Shown: positions 7,101 through 38,386 of the stretch, in pieces
Numbering within the stretch: the stretch's first letter is position 1
Layout: each line of letters opens with the position of its first letter
From: Patescibacteria group bacterium
GTDB lineage: Bacteria; Patescibacteriota; Gracilibacteria; BD1-5; UBA6164
Length of the DNA: 40,000 nt
Direction: 5' to 3'
Assembly: GCA_965227835.1 (NCBI GenBank)
Contig: OZ245768.1
Coordinates: forward strand, 719,619-759,618
Program-made: the position numbers and the translations under genes
Notes under the pieces: generated by a model
What the model was told of the DNA's origin: nothing
The model's database searches: none
What the model saw: the letters and a program-made list of their open reading frames with translations, nothing else

Positions 7101-8277
7101 ACCCCAAAGTAAGAAATGAAGTGCAATTAAAAGAGAAGAAAATATAGTATTCCCCGTAGGGTAATAACATTATTTTCTAATATAATAAGATATGTACTGA
7201 CAATTAATATTCCAAGAGAGAGAAAGTATTGAATTTCATTTAAATAAATGATTAAAGAAAAAAGATATAGCATCAATACTAAAAAGATCAGAATCAACAA
7301 TAAGCAGAGAAATATATAGAAACTCAGTAAAAAAACGATGAACCAATAAAAAAATATATCTAGCACTAGAAGCAGAAATGAAATCATATCAAAGACGATG
7401 GCTAACGAAAACTCAATCAATGAAGATAAATATGAATAATGATATGAAAAACTTCATAATAGAACAACTATCAATAACAGAAATACAAATGTCTCCAAAA
7501 ACAATTGCTAAGAAACGGAATAATACTCAAACAGATAAAAAGAAACATATTTCTCATACAAGTATATATTCTTGGCTAGAAACTGGTATGTGAAATAAAT
7601 ATAAAGAACTATTATTATATAAACATAAAGGTTATAGAAAGAAAAAACAACAAACAGAAAGAGTGAAAATTAAAAATAGAGTTAGTATTAAAGATAGACC
7701 TGAAATAATAAACAACAGAGAAGAGAAAGGACATATTGAGGCTGATTTAATTGTTTCTAAAAAATGATTTAAATGAGCTATACTTACATTGGTTGATAGA
7801 AAGACTAGATTACCTAAAATTTTTAAATTAAAAGATAAGTCAAGTGAGAATATAATTAGACTAATAGCTTGAGTTAAAGATGATATATGAATTAAATCTG
7901 TTACTTTTGATAATTGAATGGAATTTGCTAAACATTATTTGTTAAATGATATATGAATAGATACTTACTTTTGTGAACCTTATTCTTCTTGGCAGAAGTG
8001 AAGTGTTGAGAATTTAAATAGGATTATCAGGAGATTTTTTCCTAAATGAACTATATTTGATTATGTAAGTGATGAAAAAATAAAGAGTATTTGCGATATA
8101 TTAGCAAATACTCCTAGAGAAATACTTGGATTTATTTCTCCTAATCAAGCACACTTTTCACAACCTTAGAGTTGTGTTTGGAATTATAACAAAATTTCTT
8201 ATAATCTCAAAAACAAAAAATTTTCTTAATGCTATATTTTCTTCTTTAAGTTCATTTAAAAAATTGCACTTCGGGGT
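7101..8277 (+). mobile_element. IS30-family insertion sequence (~1.18 kb), intact
   Basis: One transposase ORF is flanked by imperfect terminal inverted repeats. The left end is ACCCCAAAGTAAGAAATGAAGTGCAATT...AGAAGAAAATATAG. The reverse complement of the right end (8221-8277) is AAACCCCGAAGTGCAATT...AAGAAGAAAATATAG. Confidence 0.85.
7192..8169 (+). CDS. IS30-family DDE transposase
   Basis: 978 nt = 326 codons with TGA=Gly. The N-terminal HTH-like part is MYGQLIFQERESIEFHLNKGLKKKDIASILKRSESTISREIYRNS. The catalytic part is GHIEADLIVSKKGFKGAILTLVDRKTRL...VTFDNGMEFAKH...[29 protein letters not shown], the classic IS30 D-D-E context. TGA sits at conserved Gly positions (DNG, QKG, PKG). Confidence 0.9.
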
Positions 8278-19065: not shown

Positions 19066-19737
19066 TTCAACACATCGGGATAAAAACCCCTATCTTTAGA
19101 TAGTTAAGACACCGAAGGTGTAAGTGATAGAAATTGAATAAATGAGATGTGTTGTGACATAGGGTTTTAAACCCCGTTGCCTTCAGGCCGATTCTAAAGA
19201 AAAAAGTGTAAAAAATCAATAGAATAAATAAAATAGTGTTAAAAACTAACACTAGAGAGAATGAAATACCAAAAAAGTAGTCATGCGACATATGATGTCA
19301 GATACCATATAGTATGGATAACAAAATACAGAAATCCATTCATGAAAAAGAGATACAAGATAGATTGGAAAAGATCATAAGATGAATAAGTAAAAAGCTA
19401 TGAGTAATAATAATAAAGATATGAATGGAAGAAGATCATGTACATATGTATTGTAGGATACCGTTAACTAAACCAATATCTACAATAGTATGACATATAA
19501 AGTGAGAAAGTTCTAAGGCAATAAAGAGGTATTTTTACAAAGAAATTAAGAGATGGTATTGGAAGACATGAAATATATGGTGAGTATGATATTTTGTATC
19601 TAGTGTATGAGAGATAAATTGAGAAATAATATCTAATTATGTGGAACAACAGTGAGAAGAAGAGAATAAGATTGAAGAGATAGAGCTTTAAATTTCAGTA
19701 CAAATAAAAGCCCCGTGCCTTCAGGCCGGGGTAGAAG
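19066..19737 (+). mobile_element. IS200/IS605-family element (tnpA only)
   Basis: A Y1/HUH transposase gene is flanked by subterminal hairpins. The left ones are GGGTTTTAAACCCC and GCCTTCAGGC at 19163-19190. The right one is GCCCCGTGCCTTCAGGCCGGGG at 19708-19731. There are no inverted terminal repeats, as expected for this family. The boundaries are approximate. Confidence 0.75.
19261..19691 (+). pseudogene. tnpA: IS200-type TnpA (HUH/Y1 transposase) with a single frameshift
   Basis: Frame 1 reads MKYQKSSHATYDVRYHIVWITKYRNPFMKK and then stops at 19378-19380. Shifting one base at the A-run ATGAAAAAG (about 19342-19350) gives EIQDRLEKIIRGISKKLGVIIIKIGMEEDHVHMYCRIPLTKPISTIVGHIKGESSKAIKRYF...RWYWKTGNIWGVGYFVSSVGEINGEIISNYVEQQ. 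This carries the HxH and catalytic Tyr motifs, with TGA=Gly. Confidence 0.8.
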
Positions 19738-21363: not shown

Positions 21364-21448
21364 CTTTTGAGTTAATTGGTTTAGTATAAAAATAAATTAT
21401 TACTATTTTAGTAATAATTTATTTATTGCAAACTGAAAAATCAAAAAT

Positions 21449-24088
21449 TTATAATCTTATTTTTTTTGAAGTCATAAGAATAGAAAGATGAGTTTTGAGC
21501 ACTTTCACTAAATTGTTATAATTCTCTAAAGGAAATCACTTAACTCTTTGTTGTTCTCATTTTATATATAGCTGAGTTTCTATAACAGACCTAGATTCTC
21601 CATAATCTGTACTTGCTTCTACTGATGCATCTAGTCATAATCAATATCAAAGTACAGATATATTAAGATTTTGTTTTAAATAATTAATATTTTTATCTTC
21701 ATTTCAAGATTTAAAAAATTGGTTGCTATTACCATCTCAATCACTAAGTATAAACAATGCTCATTTTTTACTCCTTTCTATACTTTTTAATCCATTTGAA
21801 ACTCAATTATAATTTTTACTGTTTCAACCACTATTTTCTTTAACTCACTTTTTAAACTCTTGGAAAAATTTGGGGTTAATTTCTCAGTTTAGAAATAGTT
21901 TTTCTTTTATCTCTATAACACAATCTGAAAAAAGAGTTATGTTTAAATTTATTTCTAACTGTTCAGATATTATTCAAAGTAGTAATACGGAGAAATAAGC
22001 ATTAGTAATTTTTGATGGATTATCAAATTCATTTTCTTGTAAATTTTCCATACTTCAGCTTATATCTATAGCAATTGATATATCTTTTAGTTTTGTATCT
22101 ATATTTCATACCAAAGCATTCTTGGGTTTTTTATTTTTTGAAAATATATTTGGATTTCCAGTTGAAATTCTAGATATGGATTTAGAATTTATAACTAAAT
22201 CTCATTGAGGTAGTCAATCTTTTGTTCTTTTTAATTTCTGTCAAAGTCTTCTTCTTTTTGAATTTTCTAACCTTTCACTTATAACTTTTTGCAGATAATT
22301 TACTATATTTAAAGCATCTTTCATAACATAATTAAGAACTCTTTTTTCTCATTCTTCTAAGTTTCTATAACTGTCTAGTTTTATTTCTTTAACTTGTGTA
22401 AATTTAGGATTTCAAAGAACCTCTCTCATTAACTCATTTAAATATTCTTCTGTTTCATCTTTTTCTGCTTTGGAATTATCACCATTGTCTTTTTCACTTT
22501 GACTAGATTCTGAATCAGAGCTTTTATCTTGTTTACTTTCACCTTTTTGATATCATTTTGGATCAGAGTTATCGTTTTTTTGTTTATCATTTTGACTAGA
22601 TTCTGAATCAGAGCTTTTATCTTGTTTACTTTCACCTTTTTGATATCATTTTGGATCAGAGTTATCGTTTTTCTGTTCATCATTTTCTAACTCATCTGAT
22701 TCTGAATCAGAACCATTATTTGCAGGTTGAAGTGGAGTAGCATCAAGTGTTTCCCATTTTCAATTTATATAAACTTCAGACCAGGAATGTCATCTGTTTT
22801 TATTTAGTTTTGTTTTTTTATCTTTAGTATAAGATTTTACTCAAGAAACAAGTCTTGCAGGATATCACATAGACCTTGAAAGAGCAACAAGTAAAATATT
22901 TGCAGTCATACATTCTATTCAAGTTTTTTCAGATATTATATTGTCTATATAATCATTAGCATCTCTAGATTTGTCTCTTATCTTTTTTTGATTTGATACA
23001 TTATATTCGTTTTCCTTAGATATAAAACTTCTTAATTCATATGGATCTTTGAACATAGAAATATCAAATTTTCAAGTATATATAGGTTTAGAACTATTTA
23101 AAATGTCTGACTGGCTTGGTTTTTCATCAGCAAAAAAAACGGTTTTTTTTGCTATTTTTATATCTGCTATTTTTATACCTTGTCTTTTTGTTTTTATGTA
23201 GTGTATACCTTCTTTATCTTTATAAATATCTATTTCTTCTTTGTTATAATCAACTACCTCATATTGTTTTAGTAGTGGCAAAACATAAAAAGAATCTCCA
23301 TGAGTTAATCACAAAGTCATAGTATGTATTTTCTCGTATTCTTGATTTTCTCTTATAGACAGTATTTCTCTTTTTGTTTTTTTCTTGATAAATTTGATAT
23401 CTTTATGTAAAAATTTCTCTCAAATTGACACTAAAAAATTTCCACTTGGTATTGGTGGTTCTATAGTAGCATAAACACCAGTTTCTTCGTTTTGTAGTTG
23501 TTCAAGTTTCTCTATATCTTTTTGAGAAAAATCAATTTGTTCTTCTGTAAATGCATCTTCTAGGTCGTCTCTTTCTTCGGGATTTAATATATCCTCCACT
23601 TCTTGTGATGTATCTTTTTCAAAAATTCCCATAAGTCTCTCCAAAGCAAATTCAGATTTAAACTTATTAAATAGCTTAGTTTCTATATCTTCTCAAAAGC
23701 AATCCCCTATTTCATTGAATTTTCTTTCTATTTCTTTGTAAATTTTCCAACCATAAGCATTTCTTTTTTGTTTAGAAAATGAATCATTTTTCATTTTTTT
23801 TATTTCATCTATTTCTTTAAAAAAATTTTCTAAAAATCAAAGATAAAATAAATCAGAAAGTATATCTACTTCTTGATTTGTTTTATTAGAAATATTTGTT
23901 TTTAAATAGCCGTTTATAGAATTAGTTTTATATGATTTTATATCATAATCTGCGAAACTTTCTAGGTATCTTAAATTACACAATAATTCTTCATAGTTTT
24001 GATTTCATAAATTATTTAACTTTTGTATTAAAATATTTCTATCATTTACTGGTTCTAACTGATGTATATTGTTTTTATGTTCTTGCAT
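21449..24088 (-). CDS. 879-aa multidomain protein: unknown N-terminal region, transglutaminase-like cysteine protease core, acidic/Ser-rich duplicated linker, C-terminal von Willebrand A (VWA) domain
   Basis: 2640 nt = 880 codons with TGA=Gly. The transglutaminase core is IECMTANILLVALSRSMGYPARLVSGV...RGHSWSEVYINGKWETLDATP (Cys, His, Asp). The VWA MIDAS motif is ISIAIDISGSM, followed later by ALFILSDGDGN. The start lies 8 nt after the stop of the upstream AAA gene. Confidence 0.85.
22501..22672. repeat. tandem duplication, 93-nt period (31 aa), inside the TGase-VWA gene
   Basis: Positions 22501-22579 and 22594-22672 are identical by eye. They encode KNDNSDPKGYQKGESKQDKSSDSESSQ twice. Confidence 0.9.
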
Positions 24089-24096
24089 TATTATTT

Positions 24097-27057
24097 TTAT
24101 AATTTTTTAATCTTTTTTTGAATTTCATATATGAAATCTACATCTTCATCTTGTGTGGGTTTATAATCTCAAAAATCAAAAAATACGGAAACATTTTTTA
24201 TAAAGTCCTCTTTGGAGCTGGATGTAGTTATAAGAAGTTTTATTATATCAACTGTAACTATTTTTTTTGCTAAAATTCAAAGTTCAATATCTGTTCAAAC
24301 ATCTTGGGTTTTCATAAGATTTTTAACTTTTTCTATTATTGGATAAATTATATCTCAAAGAAGATTAGAAATAAAATTCTCAAAATCTGGGAAACTTAAT
24401 TCAAGGTCAGGGTTGTAATTTCTTAAGTATAGATTTGATAGTTCTATTACTTCCTGTTCTGGCAGGTAGTCTATAAAAAAATCCATAAACCTTGCCTTGC
24501 TAGAAGTATTTATAGCTTTCGTATCAGGAAAAAGTATTTGATGTGCTGGATTTACAGTAGCAATTATAGAAAAATTAGGATTCCTTTTTATAAATTCTCA
24601 ATTAAAGTGTATTGTTCAATCTCTATCCATATATTCATTCAAAAATATTGATATAAGTGCATAATTTAACTCTTTTAACTCTACTAAACCTCAATATTTA
24701 TAAAAATTTAAAAACGGTTTTAAATGACTTTCTATCATACCTTCATTCCATTTTATTTCTCATTTTATATCATTTTCACAAAAATCTTCATCTATCTGTA
24801 AAGATATGTAAGGAAGCTTTAAATTTTTAGCTATTTCTTTGGATATAGAAGTTTTTCATACTCAACTTGGTCACTCTAAAAGTATATCAAATCAAGCTTT
24901 TATTGAGTTTGTTATTTTTTCTATCAAATCTCTAGTTGTTTTGGTGTTAAATTCTAAATTTCTTCAAAGTATGTCATATACTGTATCTTGAATATCAGCA
25001 GATGGTAATACTGGTGATATGACTCAAGCTCTAGAGTATTCTTTTCATCAATTTATCAAACCTAGCTTATCTGCATTTCTAAATCTAGAAATTATCTCTA
25101 TTTGTATCTTTTTATACAATTCTTGATCACTAGATATTTTTTCTAAAACACTCTCTCCCTCTGGTATTTCTTCTTTTTTACTTCATTTTCTTATAGATAG
25201 TACCCCTTCTTCATCTATTGTGAAATAAGAACCTATATTTTTTCACTTGGAGTTTGTTTTTTCATATATAGAAAAAATTATATCATTTACTTTTGATTGA
25301 GGAATATAAAATCTACCTTCATCATCTGTATATCTTATATCATTTAAACTTCATTTAAATCAAAGCATAATTACATATTGTCTACCTCACATTTCTAATT
25401 GAATTAGCTTTGATCTTCTCCTTATATACAAACTTTTTTCTGGTGAAAATATATTTTTTATTTTAGAGTATTCTAAGTCTTGTATTATATAATCCCCATA
25501 TTTTTCATCAATAAAATATAGGTCTATATCTGGATTATTATTTAAATATGAGCTAAGTTCTTCTTTTTGTTCAGCTTCCCCATATTTTTTAAGAATTTGA
25601 ACTACATAACTTTCATCTGAAGATAGTAATATATCATCTCAATTTAATGAAATTTTTAGATATTTATCGTCTATAAATTCCTTTATTTCTATATCAAATT
25701 CTTCCTTTGATTTTATTATAGAAGAATAAAATGACTCTGCTTTTTTTTGAATATTTTCTTCTCTTCTTAAAACTAATCATTCAGAAATAGTTTCTCTTTC
25801 TATAGTTTGCCTAAAACTGCTATAATCTATTTTTCTGTTTTTCTTACCTGTTTTTCATTTATTTTCTTGTGATTCTTCAATATCATCAAAATCAAGACCT
25901 AAACCTTGCATAGCAAAAGCATATTTAAGTGATTTAATTCATTTTGCATCTTGTTTTGAGATTTTTTGATCTCAAAGATGACTTATTATTTTATTATACT
26001 CTGTAACTGGATTTTCAAATTCTACATATCATCATGAAGCATCTTTATAACTTATATGAGAACTCATCTTGGTATTATATTCAAAAATAAGTTCAGATAT
26101 AAAAGCATTTGTATCTTCACTCATAAGAAAATTAATTATAATTTTTTCATAAGCTCTAACATAAAAATAGTCTCTAAAATCAGCTCAATCATCAGTATAA
26201 AATGGATTTTCAGATAATACTTTTCTCATTTTTCTAATTGTTTTTGCCAAGATTTCTAAATCTTTTTCTTCTATAACTCATATATTTCAATGCTCCATAT
26301 TCAATCTATCTCTTTGTTTTTTATATATACTTTTTACTATTTTTACTTCTGAATTTTCATCAGGTTCATGTAAAAATTCTATAATTCATCATGCTTTTCT
26401 AACAACTGCATTTGAATAATCTTTTGTTCATACATATCAGTCATTTGAAGTGAATACTAGAGAAAAATTTGGGTGTATTAAATATTTTTTTCAGTCAAAT
26501 ATAAAAAAACCATTTTCTATTAAATTTGCCATTCATATTAGTAGATCATTGTTTAGGAAATTTGCCTCATTTACTAAATAGATTGCTCACGATGTCATAG
26601 CTTTTAATAAGTCTCATGGAATAGTTTTTATTTGTATCACATTTCAACTATTATATGATTTTACCTCTTCAGAAAATGTAGATATACTTTTTTCAGGATC
26701 TCATACATCTGAATAAATCTCTAAACCTCTCTCATAAGCTATGGTTTTTACAAGAGTAGTTTTTCATGTTCCAGTAGGTCCTTGTATGATAGCAAATCTT
26801 GATTCTCAAAATATTCTTTGCTCCACTGAAGCTTTTACTTGATTAAAATAATCAGACCTATCTTCCTCTCAAACTATTTCAATCAATCAAGGAATTCTTA
26901 TACGAGTTATATACCTATCTGTGAATAATGTTTTTAATGATTTATCAGTTATGGTTTGTATATTTACACTACTATTTCATACACCTGGTATAAATAATTC
27001 ATTGTCTGATCATCTGTAATTTTTTATATTTATATCAGATACTTTTACATTTAACAT
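24097..27057 (-). CDS. 986-aa ATPase with two AAA_5 (MoxR/midasin/dynein-related) modules separated by a ~450-aa unknown region
   Basis: 2961 nt = 987 codons with TGA=Gly. The first Walker A is FAIIQGPTGTGKTTLV with Walker B-like IYLVNEANF. The second Walker A is ILLEGPSGVGKTSIS with a LVELKELNYA...FSIIATVNP context. Confidence 0.85.
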
Positions 27058-27264: not shown

Positions 27265-28572
27265 ATGTGGAATTTATTAAAAGATACGGCATGAGATGTA
27301 TCAATTATTTATAAAAACTTTCTACACTTTAGTATATCTAAGATAATTATATCTTTAGTTTGAATACTTTATGCAATTATATTATCTATCCCATTTTTGA
27401 TAGTTATTTTTTTTGTGTATATGTATATAACAAAAACAGGAAATTTTTGAATAGTAAATAGCTACCCTTTCATAGCTTTTTCTATTTTTTGAATATTTGT
27501 TCTTATTTTAGCTTTACTGTATATATTTGTTTTAATGACTAATTTAAATGTGTCTTATTTAAACTGAGAGAAACTATGATATTCTAAAAATCCATATTTT
27601 AACTTAAAACTTTTCATAAAATATTTCAAAATATCTTTAATTATTGCAATAATATCTATATTACCTTTCTTGTTTTATAATATTCTTACCTATCTTTTAA
27701 TAACTATATTTAGCACACAATCAGGTTCATCTTTGGTTTCTAATCCTCAATTTTTAACTTACCTAGGGGTTTTCTTTAATTTTTTATGAATAGTTTTTTT
27801 TATAATTTTTACCTATATTTTTTACAGAACAATTTTTTCAATAATTATTCTTTTAGATGAATCTAAATGAGAAAAATTTGAAAAAATTTTTTATTATATA
27901 AAAAAATCTTTCAATCTGACAAAAGGTTTAAATAAGTTTTTTAAATTTTTTGTAGTAGTTTTATTTTTTATTATTTTGACTTTACCAATAACTCTTCCTT
28001 TAAATTATTTTTCATCTGAAGCAAATGAAATAAATACTTATATAGAGAGCAAATCAAATCCTAACCCTAGTTTTCCTGTAGAAAATTTAGAAGAAAAATA
28101 TTCTTGAGGAGACTTAAATGTATTGAATGAAAAACTTTCTAAGTACAGAAATTATTCTTTTATTTTTGAAATTCTAAACTTTTTATTGATATTTGGTCTT
28201 TTTGAAATGATATTTTTATCGTATTACTTTAGAGTTTTAAAAAATAAAAATTTAAATAAAAAAAGTGGTTTGGCTTCGACAATAGAACAAGTTTCAAATA
28301 CAAACTCTGCTAGATCTAGTGGAACTACCAAAACTAAAAGAAAAACTTCTACGACATCAAAAACCACAAGAAATGCTCCAACAAAAACAAAAGCATCTAC
28401 CTCAACAAAAACTAGTAAAACTACAAATGCTTCTGCTAAAAAGCCTGAAGGAAAAACTATTACAAAAAAGACAGCTACTAAAAGCAGTGTAGATAAGGAT
28501 AAAACTGAAAGTAAGGAAATTAAAAAGAAAACTACAAGAAAAACCACAACTAAAAATACTCCTAAAAAATAG
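27265..28572 (+). CDS. polytopic membrane protein with a ~110-aa Lys/Thr/Ser-rich basic C-terminal tail
   Basis: 1308 nt = 436 codons with TGA=Gly. Several hydrophobic segments are followed by ...SSGTTKTKRKTSTTSKTTRNAPTKTKASTSTKTSKTTNASAKKPEGKTITKKTATK...KKKTTRKTTTKNTPKK. The ORF track shows only the last 149 aa (28123-28572). Confidence 0.7.
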
Positions 28573-31945: not shown

Positions 31946-32619
31946 TCACTCCTTATTTGATTGTCCTTCATACAAGTTAAGTCCTATCATTGCTACCAAA
32001 GCAAGAAAAAGTTGAGGCAAAATAACATATGGAATACCATATGGAACTAAAAATATAATATGTATGGGAATTACATATAATAGTATCAGTTCAGGCTTAC
32101 TATCAACAAATACTTGCTTAAATCCATCAAGTTTATATGTAAATAACGTTGTTACTATTAAGGAAATTAAAGCAATTAAAAAGATATAATATAGAAAATC
32201 AGTTAAACCAAAGATAATACCAAAGAAAAAACCAAAAAATAAAGATGAAAAGATATTAAAAAAAGAGAGATAAATATAATTCCAACTGTTTGAAAAATTC
32301 TGTGACTACCACTTTCATAAAAATCCCCTTTTTCGCTCTTTTTTCGATATTTTCCTAGGTATTCTATATATTTGTATCTATACAATATAATTGCCTCAAA
32401 TAATGTTGATATTGCAATCATAATATTAATAGTAAACAACATATCCTTGCTTCCTTGAAAGTATTCTTCAATTTCTTGTGAATATACTATCCAAGCTGAC
32501 ATAATTATCAGTAACGACGGTGCTAGTTTTTGATAAAAACGATAATTAAAAAATACATTTTTACCAAAGAAATGACACAACTTTAAGGGCATGTCATATA
32601 AGCTTTGTTTAATATTCAT
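31946..32619 (-). pseudogene. cassette copy 1: membrane-protein paralog split by a stop and frameshift (138-aa N-part plus ~85-aa C-part)
   Basis: ORF 32203-32619 (MNIKQSLYDMPLKLCHFFGKNVFFNYRFYQKLAPSLL...) ends at TAA. The C-terminal homology continues in another frame (...LILLYVIPIHIIFLVPYGIPYVILPQLFLALVAMIGLNLYEGQSNKE) to TGA at 31946-31948. Confidence 0.75.
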
Positions 32620-33445: not shown

Positions 33446-33852
33446 TTTTTTGTATTTTATATTTTATTTTTTACCTTTATATAAGTAAAAATCAGTAGAT
33501 TTTATATTGATTGAATTTTATAAAGATAAAGTTAGCTTAAATAAGTCATTTATAGAAATACCTACAATACATATGTACATGATCTTCTTCCATTCATATC
33601 TTTATTATTATTAAAGATAAAACATTAAAAATAGCTTAATATGTCCTACTTTATTTCAAAGTAAAATATAGGTCATACAATTTTTCACTTATAAAAAGTG
33701 GGTTTTTATAGTTTTGAGAAAATGGATAGAATCTATAACGAAATGCAACTTTTAGAAGACATGATATACTCTAAAAGATATAATTAAATTTTTGTGATAT
33801 GAAAATATGAATTTTATTAAAAAATAGGCAGCCTACGGCTGCCTATTTGATG

Positions 33853-34542
33853 TCACTCCTTGTTTATATTTATTTGTTTATTATTCCTATATAACTTAAT
33901 ACCTATAACTATTATCAGAAAAGTAAAAGCATATAAAAATATATAAGGAACAAAAGTTTGGATAAAGCCATATGTCGCTATTAATAAAAGTTTTACAGGA
34001 ATTATATATAGTAGCAATAATTCCATTTTGTTATTTAAATCAATCCCAAGATCAAAAATCGGATCTTTCATTGTAATTAAAATTAACTTCACAATTACCA
34101 AAGATAATGTAATACCAATTATCAGTGCTCCAATATAAGAACCACGGGTAAGAAAAAAAGCCATAAAACCTAAAACGACACCCCAAGAAACAGAACAAAG
34201 TATGATTGAACTTATACCTAGAAGTTTTAAGTATTTATTTTCAAAGGATTCTTCACCTTCTTTTATATAGTCTCCTAGATACTTTATATAATTAAATCGG
34301 TACAATATCGCTATTTCAATCAATGTAAGTGTAATAATAATTGTATTAATTACTAAACTAACAATTTCATTTTGAAAACCTTGCCCAATTTCCTGCATAA
34401 TCAACACATAAACTAACATAATCAATTGTAAGGATGGCACCAACTTTCCATAAAAATTATAGCTAAAAACTATATTTTTACTAGAAGAATGACATAACTC
34501 TGGAGTTATATCATAATCATATAAGTTTTGTTTAATATTCAT
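33853..34542 (-). CDS. cassette copy 3: intact 229-aa polytopic membrane protein of unknown function; standard-code style gene
   Basis: Uninterrupted ORF in the standard-code track. AGGAGG lies 7 nt upstream. The N-terminus MNIKQNLYDYDITPELCHSSSKNIVFSYNFYGKLVPSL is paralogous to copy 1. The ORF ends AAG GAG TGA and is followed by the hairpin terminator. Confidence 0.8.
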   Translation of the reverse strand: MNIKQNLYDYDITPELCHSSSKNIVFSYNFYGKLVPSLQLIMLVYVLIMQEIGQGFQNEIVSLVINTIIITLTLIEIAILYRFNYIKYLGDYIKEGEESFENKYLKLLGISSIILCSVSWGVVLGFMAFFLTRGSYIGALIIGITLSLVIVKLILITMKDPIFDLGIDLNNKMELLLLYIIPVKLLLIATYGFIQTFVPYIFLYAFTFLIIVIGIKLYRNNKQININKE

Positions 34543-37180: not shown

Positions 37181-38386
37181 GGGACCTCTGCAATATTGTT
37201 GAAAAGAACAAGAAAAAAGTGATTTTGAATAAAAATCACTTTTTTTGAAGAATATATAAGATAATTTCTATGAATTATGCCTTTTTTTAGGTATAATTTC
37301 CAAATTTAGGCACAATTCACCTATTAGAAAGCTATATATACCTCCTTGCCAATAGTTCAAAATTATAAATAGCACAAGATAAAAACCAGTGCATAGCATT
37401 CTTAACTAATCATCTATATCTTGTTTTATAATTTCAATATTTAGCCTTTAAAATAGAAAAAGGATGTTCTACTCTTGCCCTAATAGTAGATTTAATTCTA
37501 TTTTGTTCTTTTTGATAAGAAGTCAACGGATTATTTCTAGATCATCTTTCATTGAACTCTCACTTAATTCATAACTCATCTAAAAATTTTATTTTATCTT
37601 TACTTATATAGGCACTATCTCAATATGCCTCTTCACTCTCATCTCAAGTCATTAAAGTATCAGATAATTGTGAATCATGTATCTTAGCTGTCGTATATGT
37701 TGTATTCATTACAAAGTCTCCTCTCTTTGTTGTTTCAATATGAGCTTTATATCAATGATAACTTCTTCAATTCTTCTTTGTAAAACTAGCTTCCTTATCT
37801 CTTGTATTTTCTCATTTATTATTCTTTCTTCATTTTGGTGATTCTATTATAGTACCATCTTGAATAAATCACTTTTCTACTGTAAATCACATTTCAGCTA
37901 AAATAAATTGAGTCATTGTAAATATAGTTTCCTGACTTCAGTTTTCTGATAATTCATTTCTAAATCTACATATTGTTGTTTCATCTGGTATATCTTTAGA
38001 CTCCGATATTCATAGAAACTTTTGAAAGCTATTTCTGTCTCTTATTTGATCTTCTATTTCCGGATCTGATAATCCATATAATCATTGAAGAAATAGTATT
38101 TTTAACATTTTTTGTATTTCCATTCTTGGTCTTCAAACTCATCAATCTGATATTTCTCTAGATAAATTAATTTTATTTGATATTGATTCCCATGGGACTA
38201 CTTTATCTAATTTTGTTAGAAACTTTTCTGTTCTTGTAATTCATAACTCATTTTGGAAATAATTCAAAAATGTTTGTTGTTCTTTAAATGGTGACATAAT
38301 CATTAAAAAAAAATTAAAATATTTATCATATTTTAATCTTTTTATTATATTTTTGTAATTTAAATCTATCTTTTTGCAGAGGTCCC
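37181..38386 (-). mobile_element. IS5-family insertion sequence (~1.2 kb) with 13-bp perfect terminal inverted repeats
   Basis: GGGACCTCTGCAA at 37181-37193 and TTGCAGAGGTCCC at 38374-38386. TTAT is present on both flanks, a candidate 4-bp target duplication as is typical of IS5. Confidence 0.85.
37332..38297 (-). CDS. IS5-family DDE transposase
   Basis: 966 nt = 322 codons with TGA=Gly. Motifs are GGVGRPRM, LYGLSDPEIEDQIRDRNSFQKFLGI, IPDETTICRFRNEL, FIQDGTIIESP, KKNGRSYHGYKAHI, AYGDSAYIS and [29 protein letters not shown]. Confidence 0.9.

Follow-up and report, generated by a model that had tools for sequence, protein, structure and literature searches.

We analysed a 40,000-nucleotide stretch of contig OZ245768.1 (assembly GCA_965227835.1, positions 719,619 to 759,618 of the forward strand; hereafter the window) from a Patescibacteria group bacterium of the class Gracilibacteria (BD1-5; UBA6164), centered on two adjacent genes that an earlier annotation made without database searches (the original prediction) had described as a module. 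Gene A encodes an ATPase with two AAA_5 domains, and gene B a protein predicted to combine a TgpA-like transglutaminase (TGase)/cysteine-peptidase core with an intact Cys-His-Asp triad, an acidic linker, a long helix, and a C-terminal VWA domain. We propose that A and B form a two-gene operon encoding a MoxR-class AAA+/VWA machine in which the VWA partner bears its own thiol enzyme, a reading to which we assign a probability of roughly 55%. The gene layout agrees with the original prediction, i.e., proteins of 986 and 879 amino acids, 8 nt between the A stop and the B start, and a class-V aminotransferase gene starting 85 nt past B, all of which hold under genetic code 25 only (Table 1).

Read on the minus strand with code 25, a code typical of Gracilibacteria and Absconditabacteria in which TGA specifies glycine, positions 21449-27057 resolve into these two long genes; an open reading frame (ORF) listing with table 11 returned no ORF of at least 80 aa over most of the interval. 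With TGA read as sense, ORFs of 150 codons or more covered ~97% of the window instead of 16%, as compared to only 19% when TAG was freed and 47% when TAA was freed. In-frame TGA codons occur at glycines of both Walker A motifs of gene A, and standard-code homologs carry Gly in 60 of the 142 cells aligned to TGA positions of gene B and in 26 of the 60 aligned to those of gene A, which corresponds to 42-43% against a background of 5-6%, with Trp practically absent. Based on this gain in coding capacity, the placement of TGA in the Walker A motifs, and the glycines found in homologs, the whole window (1-40000) uses code 25. TGA is also the majority glycine codon of both genes (33/51 in B, 47/65 in A), and at the composition of the window (~25% GC) the chance of a run free of TAA and TAG is ~1e-29 over 986 codons and ~1e-26 over 879 codons. 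Public gene calls for this lineage were made with code 4, and the database proteins P0001, P0002, and P0098 have Trp at each of these glycines, including those of Walker A. Such Trp-for-Gly records will mislead domain and structure predictions built on them.

Table 1. Coordinates of the two genes, of their predicted parts, and of the adjoining features, numbered along the window.
Feature	Position	Strand	Basis
Gene A, 986-aa tandem AAA_5 (MoxR-class) ATPase	24097..27057	-	Code-25 ORF, Pfam, PDB sequence matches, full-length homologs
AAA module D1 (A residues ~25-300)	26158..26985	-	Motif positions, family alignment, module HMM coordinates
Middle region of A (residues ~301-690)	24988..26157	-	A_MID HMM matches tandem-AAA relatives only
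AAA module D2 (A residues ~691-982)	24112..24984	-	Alignment to CbbQ 5c3c/6l1q
Gene B, 879-aa soluble TGase-linker-VWA protein	21449..24088	-	Code-25 ORF, Pfam Transglut_core, orthologs
B residues 1-205, poorly conserved N-terminal region, acidic from ~166	23474..24088	-	Family alignment
B residues 206-455, beta-rich domain and TgpA-like transglutaminase core	22724..23473	-	Pfam, invariant triad, TgpA profile and Foldseek matches
Predicted catalytic triad of B: Cys393; His434; Asp449	22910-22912; 22787-22789; 22742-22744	-	
B residues ~456-575, acidic Ser/Asp/Glu/Lys-rich disordered linker	22364..22723	-	Composition, pLDDT <50 in ortholog model
B residues 585-878, long helix, basic loop (conserved x-I-F motif), VWA domain, and conserved C-terminal tail	21455..22336	-	
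Predicted MIDAS DxSGS of B, D675-x-S677-G-S679	22052-22066	-	
Perfect 16-bp AT-only hairpin followed by UUUUUAU, in the 85-nt gap between B and the aminotransferase gene	21390..21424	-	RNA fold
Class-V aminotransferase (pyridoxal phosphate) gene, 427 aa	20080..21363	-	Pfam Aminotran_5 6.7e-46; start 85 nt past B

Protein A carries two AAA_5 modules in one chain, as had been proposed from its two P-loops. Pfam AAA_5, the family of the CbbQ/NorQ/GvpN group of MoxR-class proteins, matched two stretches of the protein (4.6e-19, 69.2 bits vs. a cut-off of 22), and the Walker A motifs at residues 93-100 (GPTGTGKT) and 729-736 (GPSGVGKT), 636 residues apart, both fit GxxxxGK[ST] and are kept in the family. 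The remaining motifs of the first module (D1) are a Walker B 'LVNE' at 161-164, in which Asn replaces Asp, 'FTSN' at 202-205, and R220, and those of the second (D2) an 'ELKE' at the Walker B position (793-796), a sensor-1 'ATVNP' at 833-837, and R856, with the sensor-1 Asn and downstream Arg of D2 lining up with CbbQ. When compared to PDB sequences, D2 matched solved MoxR-class ATPases, namely CbbQ (5c3c, 4e-8; 6l1q, 1.4e-7) and NorQ (9qh4, 8e-5), with alignments spanning E-values of 4e-8 to 5e-4, and the same comparison yielded no sequence-level match of A to midasin or dynein. D2 is also barely over the threshold of Pfam AAA_3 (28.3 bits vs. 27). K795-E796 of D2 align on the Walker B Asp-Glu of CbbQ, and neither D1 (LVNE) nor D2 (ELKE) follows the hhhhDE consensus. 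Across the family alignment, the Walker B Asp position of D2 is Lys or Arg in all members, and that of D1 reads N-E in code-25 members and D-E in the standard-code locus L007.

The region between the two modules had been estimated at about 450 aa; it is indeed unassigned, with no Pfam or PDB match, and measures ~400 aa (residues ~300-690). Hidden Markov models (HMMs) of individual modules, run over all fetched loci in six frames and thus independently of the genetic code, indicated that this region (A_MID HMM) is conserved within the tandem-AAA subfamily alone. The AlphaFold model of A, for which the database ortholog P0002 with its Trp residues at TGA-Gly positions served as input, has a predicted local distance difference test (pLDDT) score of 50, mostly <50 across the middle region, and its low-confidence hints of a helical and then beta-rich fold were not used to interpret this region. 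Its only robust fold matches were to NorQ, CbbQ, and dynein AAA modules, and are consistent with, but too coarse to resolve, the helix-2 insert and pre-sensor-1 hairpin of the MoxR clade. Full-length homologs of A comprise P0002-P0006 and a 1114-aa protein of L007.

In protein B, Pfam Transglut_core matched residues 355-450 (1.9e-11, 44.6 bits vs. a cut-off of 23), and Cys393, His434, and Asp449 are invariant in alignments of 7-12 sequences across all three architectural groups of the family (see below), which bears out the predicted transglutaminase core. The ~330 aa upstream of this core, originally left without assignment, are reduced to ~200 aa, since residues ~206-345 (~130-140 aa) correspond to a beta domain that TgpA likewise has ahead of its TGase core. 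The B family profile matched TgpA (6g49) by sequence at an E-value of 2.9e-5, and a Foldseek comparison of the beta and TGase parts of an ortholog model with the periplasmic domain of TgpA (6g49) yielded 5.8e-9 over 299 columns. This structure model is the AlphaFold (AF2) prediction for ortholog P0001, a code-4 call which is 92% identical to B and equivalent to B residues 153-879. Its pLDDT is 63.5 overall and 70-90 in the domains, with the VWA domain given as 55-85, and it divides into five parts. In B numbering, the beta-rich domain spans ~202-312 and the TGase core ~322-452; a disordered linker then leads to a long helix (~579-616), and the last part is an alpha/beta domain (~668-873).

Orthologs of B include P0001/P0098, L2_766, and P0008-P0021, and the N-terminal region is poorly conserved: residues 1-177 of B had no BLAST similarity to L2_766, and the standard-code relatives (P0014, P0016, P0017, P0019, and P0021; e.g., L007 10061-10810) carry an N-terminal zincin-like module with the pattern HExxH...E-D-x-R-[IV]-N. 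Judging from this motif, and given that the module had no Pfam match and matched no solved structure by sequence, it may represent an undescribed zincin-like family. The module is degenerate in code-25 members and unrecognisable in the B protein of the window, in which HExxH is not present.

The acidic linker of B contains an exact 28-aa repeat (residues 472-499 and 503-530), which at the DNA level is a tandem repeat at 22490-22686 (Tandem Repeats Finder period of 93, 2.1 copies, 96% matches), in line with the duplication already pointed out in the original prediction. This 93-nt duplication is recent, and the copy structure of the linker differs in the close relative L001 (97% identical). No NCBIfam model covers B, and a weak NCBIfam match to CobT (E-value of 0.07) was treated as compositional, as it falls on the acidic linker.

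The predicted VWA domain of B is divergent, and its assignment is based on orthologs and on the fold of the P0001 model. While no Pfam VWA family was found at an E-value ≤1 in the B protein of the window, Pfam VWA is above threshold in the ortholog P0017 (28.2 bits vs. 23.8), with P0021 and P0009 scoring weakly, and Foldseek matches to the last part of the model include the metal ion-dependent adhesion site (MIDAS) domain of MDN1 (8ql1, 2.6e-6, the best match), RGLG1, CMG2, NorD, integrin I domains, a BatA-like protein, and the Rea1 MIDAS. Residues D675-x-S677-G678-S679-M680, N756, N759, and S782-D-G-D785 are invariant in the family alignment. The DxSxS motif and VWA domain reported earlier are recovered, the latter via orthologs, but the MIDAS is not fully intact: the position of the MIDAS Thr, which is Thr in integrin alpha-M and in relatives with a canonical 'GGT', is the invariant Asn756. 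From these residues, the MIDAS of B is predicted to be a variant in which DxSGS and the beta-4 Asp are there and the canonical Thr is replaced by Asn. Finally, as stated in the original prediction, neither A nor B includes a convincing transmembrane segment (maximum 19-residue hydropathy of B, 1.35), no signal peptide was found in either, and hydropathy points to both proteins being soluble.

The gap between B and the aminotransferase gene folds into a hairpin (dG of -14.4 kcal/mol, z-score of -4.37, 0 of 200 shuffles as stable) which, together with the U-tract that follows it, is a probable intrinsic terminator ending the unit. A scan for consensus terminators, which requires GC pairs and misses an AT-only hairpin, returned none that was GC-rich, and a sigma-70 consensus scan yielded fewer promoter matches than in shuffled sequences; both scans are uninformative at 25% GC. 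Among relatives, the aminotransferase gene is found downstream of B only in the near-identical L001, and not in L002, L007, L008, or L009. Because of the hairpin and of this lack of conservation, we take A and B alone as the unit: the aminotransferase gene is probably a neighbour and not part of the module, and its co-transcription with A and B, which had been suggested from the short gap, is unlikely.

To place A and B in a broader context, we searched for relatives across genomes and metagenomes. A HMMER search with P0001 against 1.84 billion representatives returned 86 proteins at an E-value ≤1e-3, including 15 at ≤1e-10, and a single relative locus, in a Candidatus Gracilibacteria metagenome-assembled genome, was found across 185,579 species-representative genomes. 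A word-indexed search with full-length B returned one protein, the low-complexity linker having probably swamped the candidates, and a profile search with the beta and TGase module returned 6 fragments only, which gives no measure of family size. Overall, ~60 metagenome loci carry the full beta and TGase module, ~50 of which show DxSGS 190-300 residues further in the same ORF, and these are distributed among three gene arrangements with 25-35% identity between them. The uniqueness that the original prediction implied for this architecture thus does not hold.

In the first arrangement, the tandem AAA gene is followed by the TGase-VWA gene. This is the case for the window, L001, L002/L003, L004-L006, L007/L010, L008, L009, and the fragment L030, a group which includes both Gracilibacteria and standard-code metagenome contigs. 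A and B are adjacent in every relative with a long enough contig (L001, L002, L007/L010, L008, and L009), with a spacing of 7 nt in L007 and 3 nt in L008, close to the 8 nt observed in the window. In L001, the first ~150 codons of B are present in the DNA (237-703, 97% identity) and are out of frame; a loss of the N-terminal domain was considered for this locus, and a frameshift or assembly error is likelier, the contig having a coverage of 4.9x.

The second arrangement (~35 loci, L012-L053) consists of a ~1230-1680-aa protein whose only AAA_5 is C-terminal and, after a gap of 4-23 nt, a ~1040-1100-aa protein. In L019 (3302-10280), for instance, Pfam places AAA_5 at residues 962-1098 of the first protein (1280 aa) and Transglut_core and VWA_2 in the second (1043 aa), and there the Walker B is 'FNEFN' and the MIDAS fully canonical. 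These loci were also considered as classical MoxR/DUF58/TgpA triads, a possibility we rejected as their ORFs correspond to a 1280-aa AAA_5 protein and a 1043-aa TGase-VWA fusion. L037 (3309-10331) is a further locus of this sister architecture, in which the ~1280-aa AAA protein has an unassigned N-terminal region of ~900 aa and the ~1043-aa partner is laid out as TGase, coiled-coil acidic linker, and VWA. The third arrangement (~20 loci) is built around a ~850-920-aa TGase-VWA protein, and a homologous MoxR-like AAA protein of 675-1066 aa was detected at 13 of these loci, directly downstream at 11 and upstream at 2. Gene order is reversed in L060 (7431-12086) and L054-L068, where the TGase-VWA gene (~870 aa) comes first, followed by an AAA protein with a central core and a canonical Walker B (D-E).

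In total, ~50 loci beyond the first arrangement encode a TGase-VWA fusion together with a large single-AAA protein. A TGase-VWA fusion beside a large AAA protein is therefore a recurrent family, of which the window represents the tandem-AAA variant and whose members are given no name in any source. The AAA_5 modules, the VWA fold, and this conserved adjacency substantiate the MoxR-type AAA/VWA pairing with a TGase effector put forward originally. Some tandem-AAA relatives also encode leucine-rich repeat (LRR) proteins, with 22-24-aa repeats, between or after A and B (L002 3171-4091; L009 10962-12659, 14992-15309, and from 15310; L004 from 4456; L008 4063-6024). These LRR proteins could be a third component acting as adaptor or sensor; the window contains no LRR gene.

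By analogy with characterized MoxR/VWA pairs, A and B would most likely constitute an ATP-driven machine which captures a protein via its MIDAS and then cleaves or modifies it. As for NorQ/NorD and CbbQ/CbbO, A would assemble as a ring, most simply a trimer presenting six AAA modules, and this ring would dock B through the VWA domain, the basic loop and helix that precede it, and the conserved C-terminal tail. The metal of the MIDAS would capture an acidic residue of the target protein, and ATP turnover, probably in D1, would pull or twist the linker. D1 is the likelier turnover site because D2 has a Lys at the Mg-binding position of Walker B. The target would in this way be unfolded, or positioned for the Cys393 site, and then cleaved or transamidated/deamidated, and the acidic linker may serve as an internal pseudo-ligand which holds the MIDAS closed before the motor is at work. 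A proteolytic or processing role is favoured over cross-linking because of the HExxH zincin-like module found in standard-code relatives. Two previous studies provide a framework for this model. In NorQD, the VWA domain inserts a finger into the pore of the hexamer, NorD contacts the ATPase with its C-terminus, and the linker of NorD is remodelled as ATP is turned over (PMC13036017). The membrane-bound MoxR-vWA-YebA/TgpA operon was predicted by Zhang and Aravind (2012) to serve in degradation, with recruitment by vWA, unfolding by MoxR, and cleavage by the transglutaminase-like (TGL) enzyme (PMC3495828). The function proposed here for A and B would match this prediction in a soluble, fused form.

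Several observations weigh against this model. The Walker B motifs of A (N-E and K-E) are non-canonical and the Thr of the B MIDAS is replaced by Asn, so that ATPase activity for A and metal or ligand binding for B are predictions only. With a model of A at a pLDDT of 50, how A oligomerizes and how it would contact B is pure inference, and the P0001 model used for B carries Trp at the TGA-Gly positions. A transglutaminase fold can be a peptidase, a transamidase, a deamidase, or an inactive binder, among which sequence alone does not discriminate. In addition, the window offers no evident candidate for a substrate.

The genes surrounding A and B are mostly of a housekeeping type, and include rpoB and rpoC (identified from reading translations), a CitMHS transporter, YmdB, an M23 peptidase, an MscS channel, and three insertion sequence (IS) transposases; nearby genes also resemble a phosphate ABC transporter by eye, and searches of the window for Rfam and tRNA genes returned none. 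One of the transposase genes, of the IS200 type (Y1_Tnp, 19314-19691, plus strand), is located within ~1 kb of sequence immediately downstream of the aminotransferase gene; L001, otherwise 93-99% identical, has only ~0.25 kb there, which makes a recent insertion probable. The others are found at 7192-8169 (HTH_38, IS30-like) and 37332-38303 (DDE_Tnp_1). Divergent from gene A, a plus-strand gene (27265-28572) encodes a 435-aa protein without Pfam match, which is predicted to have many membrane helices and has a long, basic, Lys/Thr/Ser-rich C-terminal tail. Two small membrane proteins encoded on the minus strand (32203-32619 and 33817-34542) share the N-terminus MNIKQ[SN]LYD and resemble paralogues, and the ~1.2 kb between them holds no ORF of at least 70 aa and no Rfam or tRNA match.

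We next considered alternative roles for A and B, the best supported of which is a conflict system (anti-phage or anti-host defence) or host-interaction effector, as proposed in the original prediction. The AAA protein would then be an NTP-dependent switch and the TGase an effector, peptidase or cross-linker, released upon sensing an invader or prey, with LRR proteins as sensors in the relatives. Conflict systems that associate vWA and MoxR with a peptidase effector, in occasional cases a TGL, have been described (PMC7159879), and the LRR genes at the A-B loci of L002, L004, L008, and L009 keep this idea alive. The module is also patchy and rare, with one locus in 185,579 species genomes and 86 clusters among 1.84 billion representatives, the linker and N-terminus of B change fast, and IS elements occur in the window. 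However, direct support is lacking: PADLOC 2.0 returned no match for B and a generic P-loop-level match only for A (best mad8, 1.8e-11), neighbours are of a housekeeping type both in the window and in L007, no VMAP-type or other conserved third gene was seen alongside the absence of an LRR gene in the window, and no copies were found on viral contigs. Since A and B have neither signal peptides nor transmembrane segments, a direct action on another cell would moreover be hard to envisage. Overall, we regard a conflict or host-interaction role as unlikely.

A cofactor- or metal-insertion or complex-assembly chaperone, akin to NorQ/NorD, CbbQ/CbbO, CobS/CobT, or RavA/ViaA, in which the TGase fold would only bind or anchor the target, appears more doubtful still. 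This would be consistent with CbbQ and NorQ being the closest solved relatives of D2, with NorD VWA among the fold matches of B, and with a C-terminal VWA placed behind a charged linker, which is the layout of NorD, CbbO, CobT, and BchD (although the CobT match itself is weak and compositional). Yet the invariance of Cys-His-Asp in all three architectural groups argues for catalysis, the additional HExxH module of relatives suggests peptidase chemistry, and no candidate metalloenzyme client is conserved beside the module. Least probable is the evolutionary scenario of the original prediction, i.e., a classical MoxR/DUF58/TgpA triad compressed by gene fusion and duplication: while the TgpA periplasmic domain is the best structural and sequence match of the beta and TGase domains of B, D2 is just over the AAA_3 threshold, and MoxR-vWA-TGL functional linkage is widespread (PMC3495828), only the TGase module is TgpA-like, B has no DUF58 similarity, membrane part, or DUF3488, the ATPase is of the AAA_5/CbbQ-NorQ-like type, and a fused TGase-VWA that is old and diversified across three arrangements does not suggest a local compression in this organism.

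Beyond the AAA+/VWA machine favoured here for A and B, the family as a whole could tentatively be viewed as a class of its own, so far unrecognised, of soluble and self-contained machines that would depend on ATP and act as thiol peptidases or modify proteins, and in which a MoxR-clade motor is permanently paired with a TGase-VWA protein. The motor would be tandem-AAA, giant single-AAA, or downstream-AAA depending on the arrangement, and some members would add an HExxH peptidase module and LRR adaptors. If true, this would represent a further independent union of AAA+ unfoldase and peptidase beside Lon, FtsH, ClpXP, and HslUV, and would provide the MoxR-vWA-TgpA systems, which are still unexplained, with a soluble model that is tractable.

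MoxR-VWA pairs are among the commonest AAA+ systems of poorly understood function. The hypothesis that a MoxR motor feeds a TGase peptidase (PMC3495828) has been hard to approach, partly since TgpA is a polytopic membrane protein. The A-B family would bring these three activities together in only two proteins, both soluble, and because the VWA recruiter and TGase enzyme share one soluble chain, reconstitution, structure work, and substrate trapping become practical. The main interest of A and B is as a soluble model for this long-standing MoxR-vWA-transglutaminase hypothesis. In addition, a tandem AAA_5 protein with Lys/Arg at one Walker B Asp position would provide a natural division of labour in a MoxR-type ring, and A is intermediate in module number between single-module MoxR proteins and the six modules of midasin and dynein. 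For Gracilibacteria and the Candidate Phyla Radiation, this module is also a large and conserved investment, at 5.6 kb of a ~1.5-Mb genome.

Comparison with known AAA+/VWA systems further delineates which features of A and B are shared and which are distinct. A plain MoxR/BatA aerotolerance operon, named in the original prediction as an example of a finding that would overturn it, is ruled out, as the window encodes no transmembrane VWA protein, TPR protein, or DUF58. The vWA-MoxR-VMAP ternary systems (Kaur et al. 2020, PMC7159879) similarly associate MoxR and vWA with a peptidase-type effector, rarely TGL, and repeat-protein (LRR) partners are encoded in relatives of A-B; the A-B module differs in that no VMAP-type gene, defence-island context, or PADLOC system match was seen and in that its effector is fused to the vWA protein. 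Mg and Co chelatases (BchI/BchD, CobS/CobT) likewise combine a MoxR-clade motor with a protein formed of an N-terminal domain, an acidic linker, and a C-terminal VWA, and include one catalytically degenerate AAA-like unit (BchD; in A, by sequence, D2). This unit is however located in the motor chain A rather than in the VWA protein; in addition, there is no third chelatase subunit, and the CobT signal of B is weak and compositional.

The description of the module as midasin-like holds for its theme only. Both systems include multiple AAA_5 modules per chain and a D/E-rich disordered linker ahead of a MIDAS, and the MDN1 MIDAS is the best VWA fold match of B. Unlike midasin (Rea1/MDN1), to which A has no sequence-level match, A has two AAA modules instead of six, the MIDAS is carried by a separate polypeptide, and this polypeptide includes a transglutaminase domain that midasin lacks. 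NorQ/NorD and CbbQ/CbbO are closer in several respects: CbbQ and NorQ can be aligned with D2, the genes are adjacent, the partner has a C-terminal VWA/MIDAS past a flexible linker, and NorD VWA domains are among the fold matches of B. The differences lie in the size of the motor (two modules, 986 aa, and a ~400-aa insert in A, as compared to one ~270-aa module), in the N-E and K-E Walker B motifs of A, in the catalytic-looking TGase domain which in B takes the place of the NorD/CbbO N-terminal domains, and in the lack of nitric oxide reductase or Rubisco client genes near A and B. Finally, relative to the MoxR-vWA/DUF58-TgpA/YebA operon, A and B are two genes rather than three, with a tandem AAA_5 instead of a single AAA_3, and with TGase and VWA fused in a soluble protein without transmembrane helices, DUF58, or DUF3488. 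Both nevertheless bring together a MoxR-clade AAA+ protein, a VWA domain, and a TgpA-like thiol enzyme (6g49 match), and would operate by the same predicted logic (PMC3495828).

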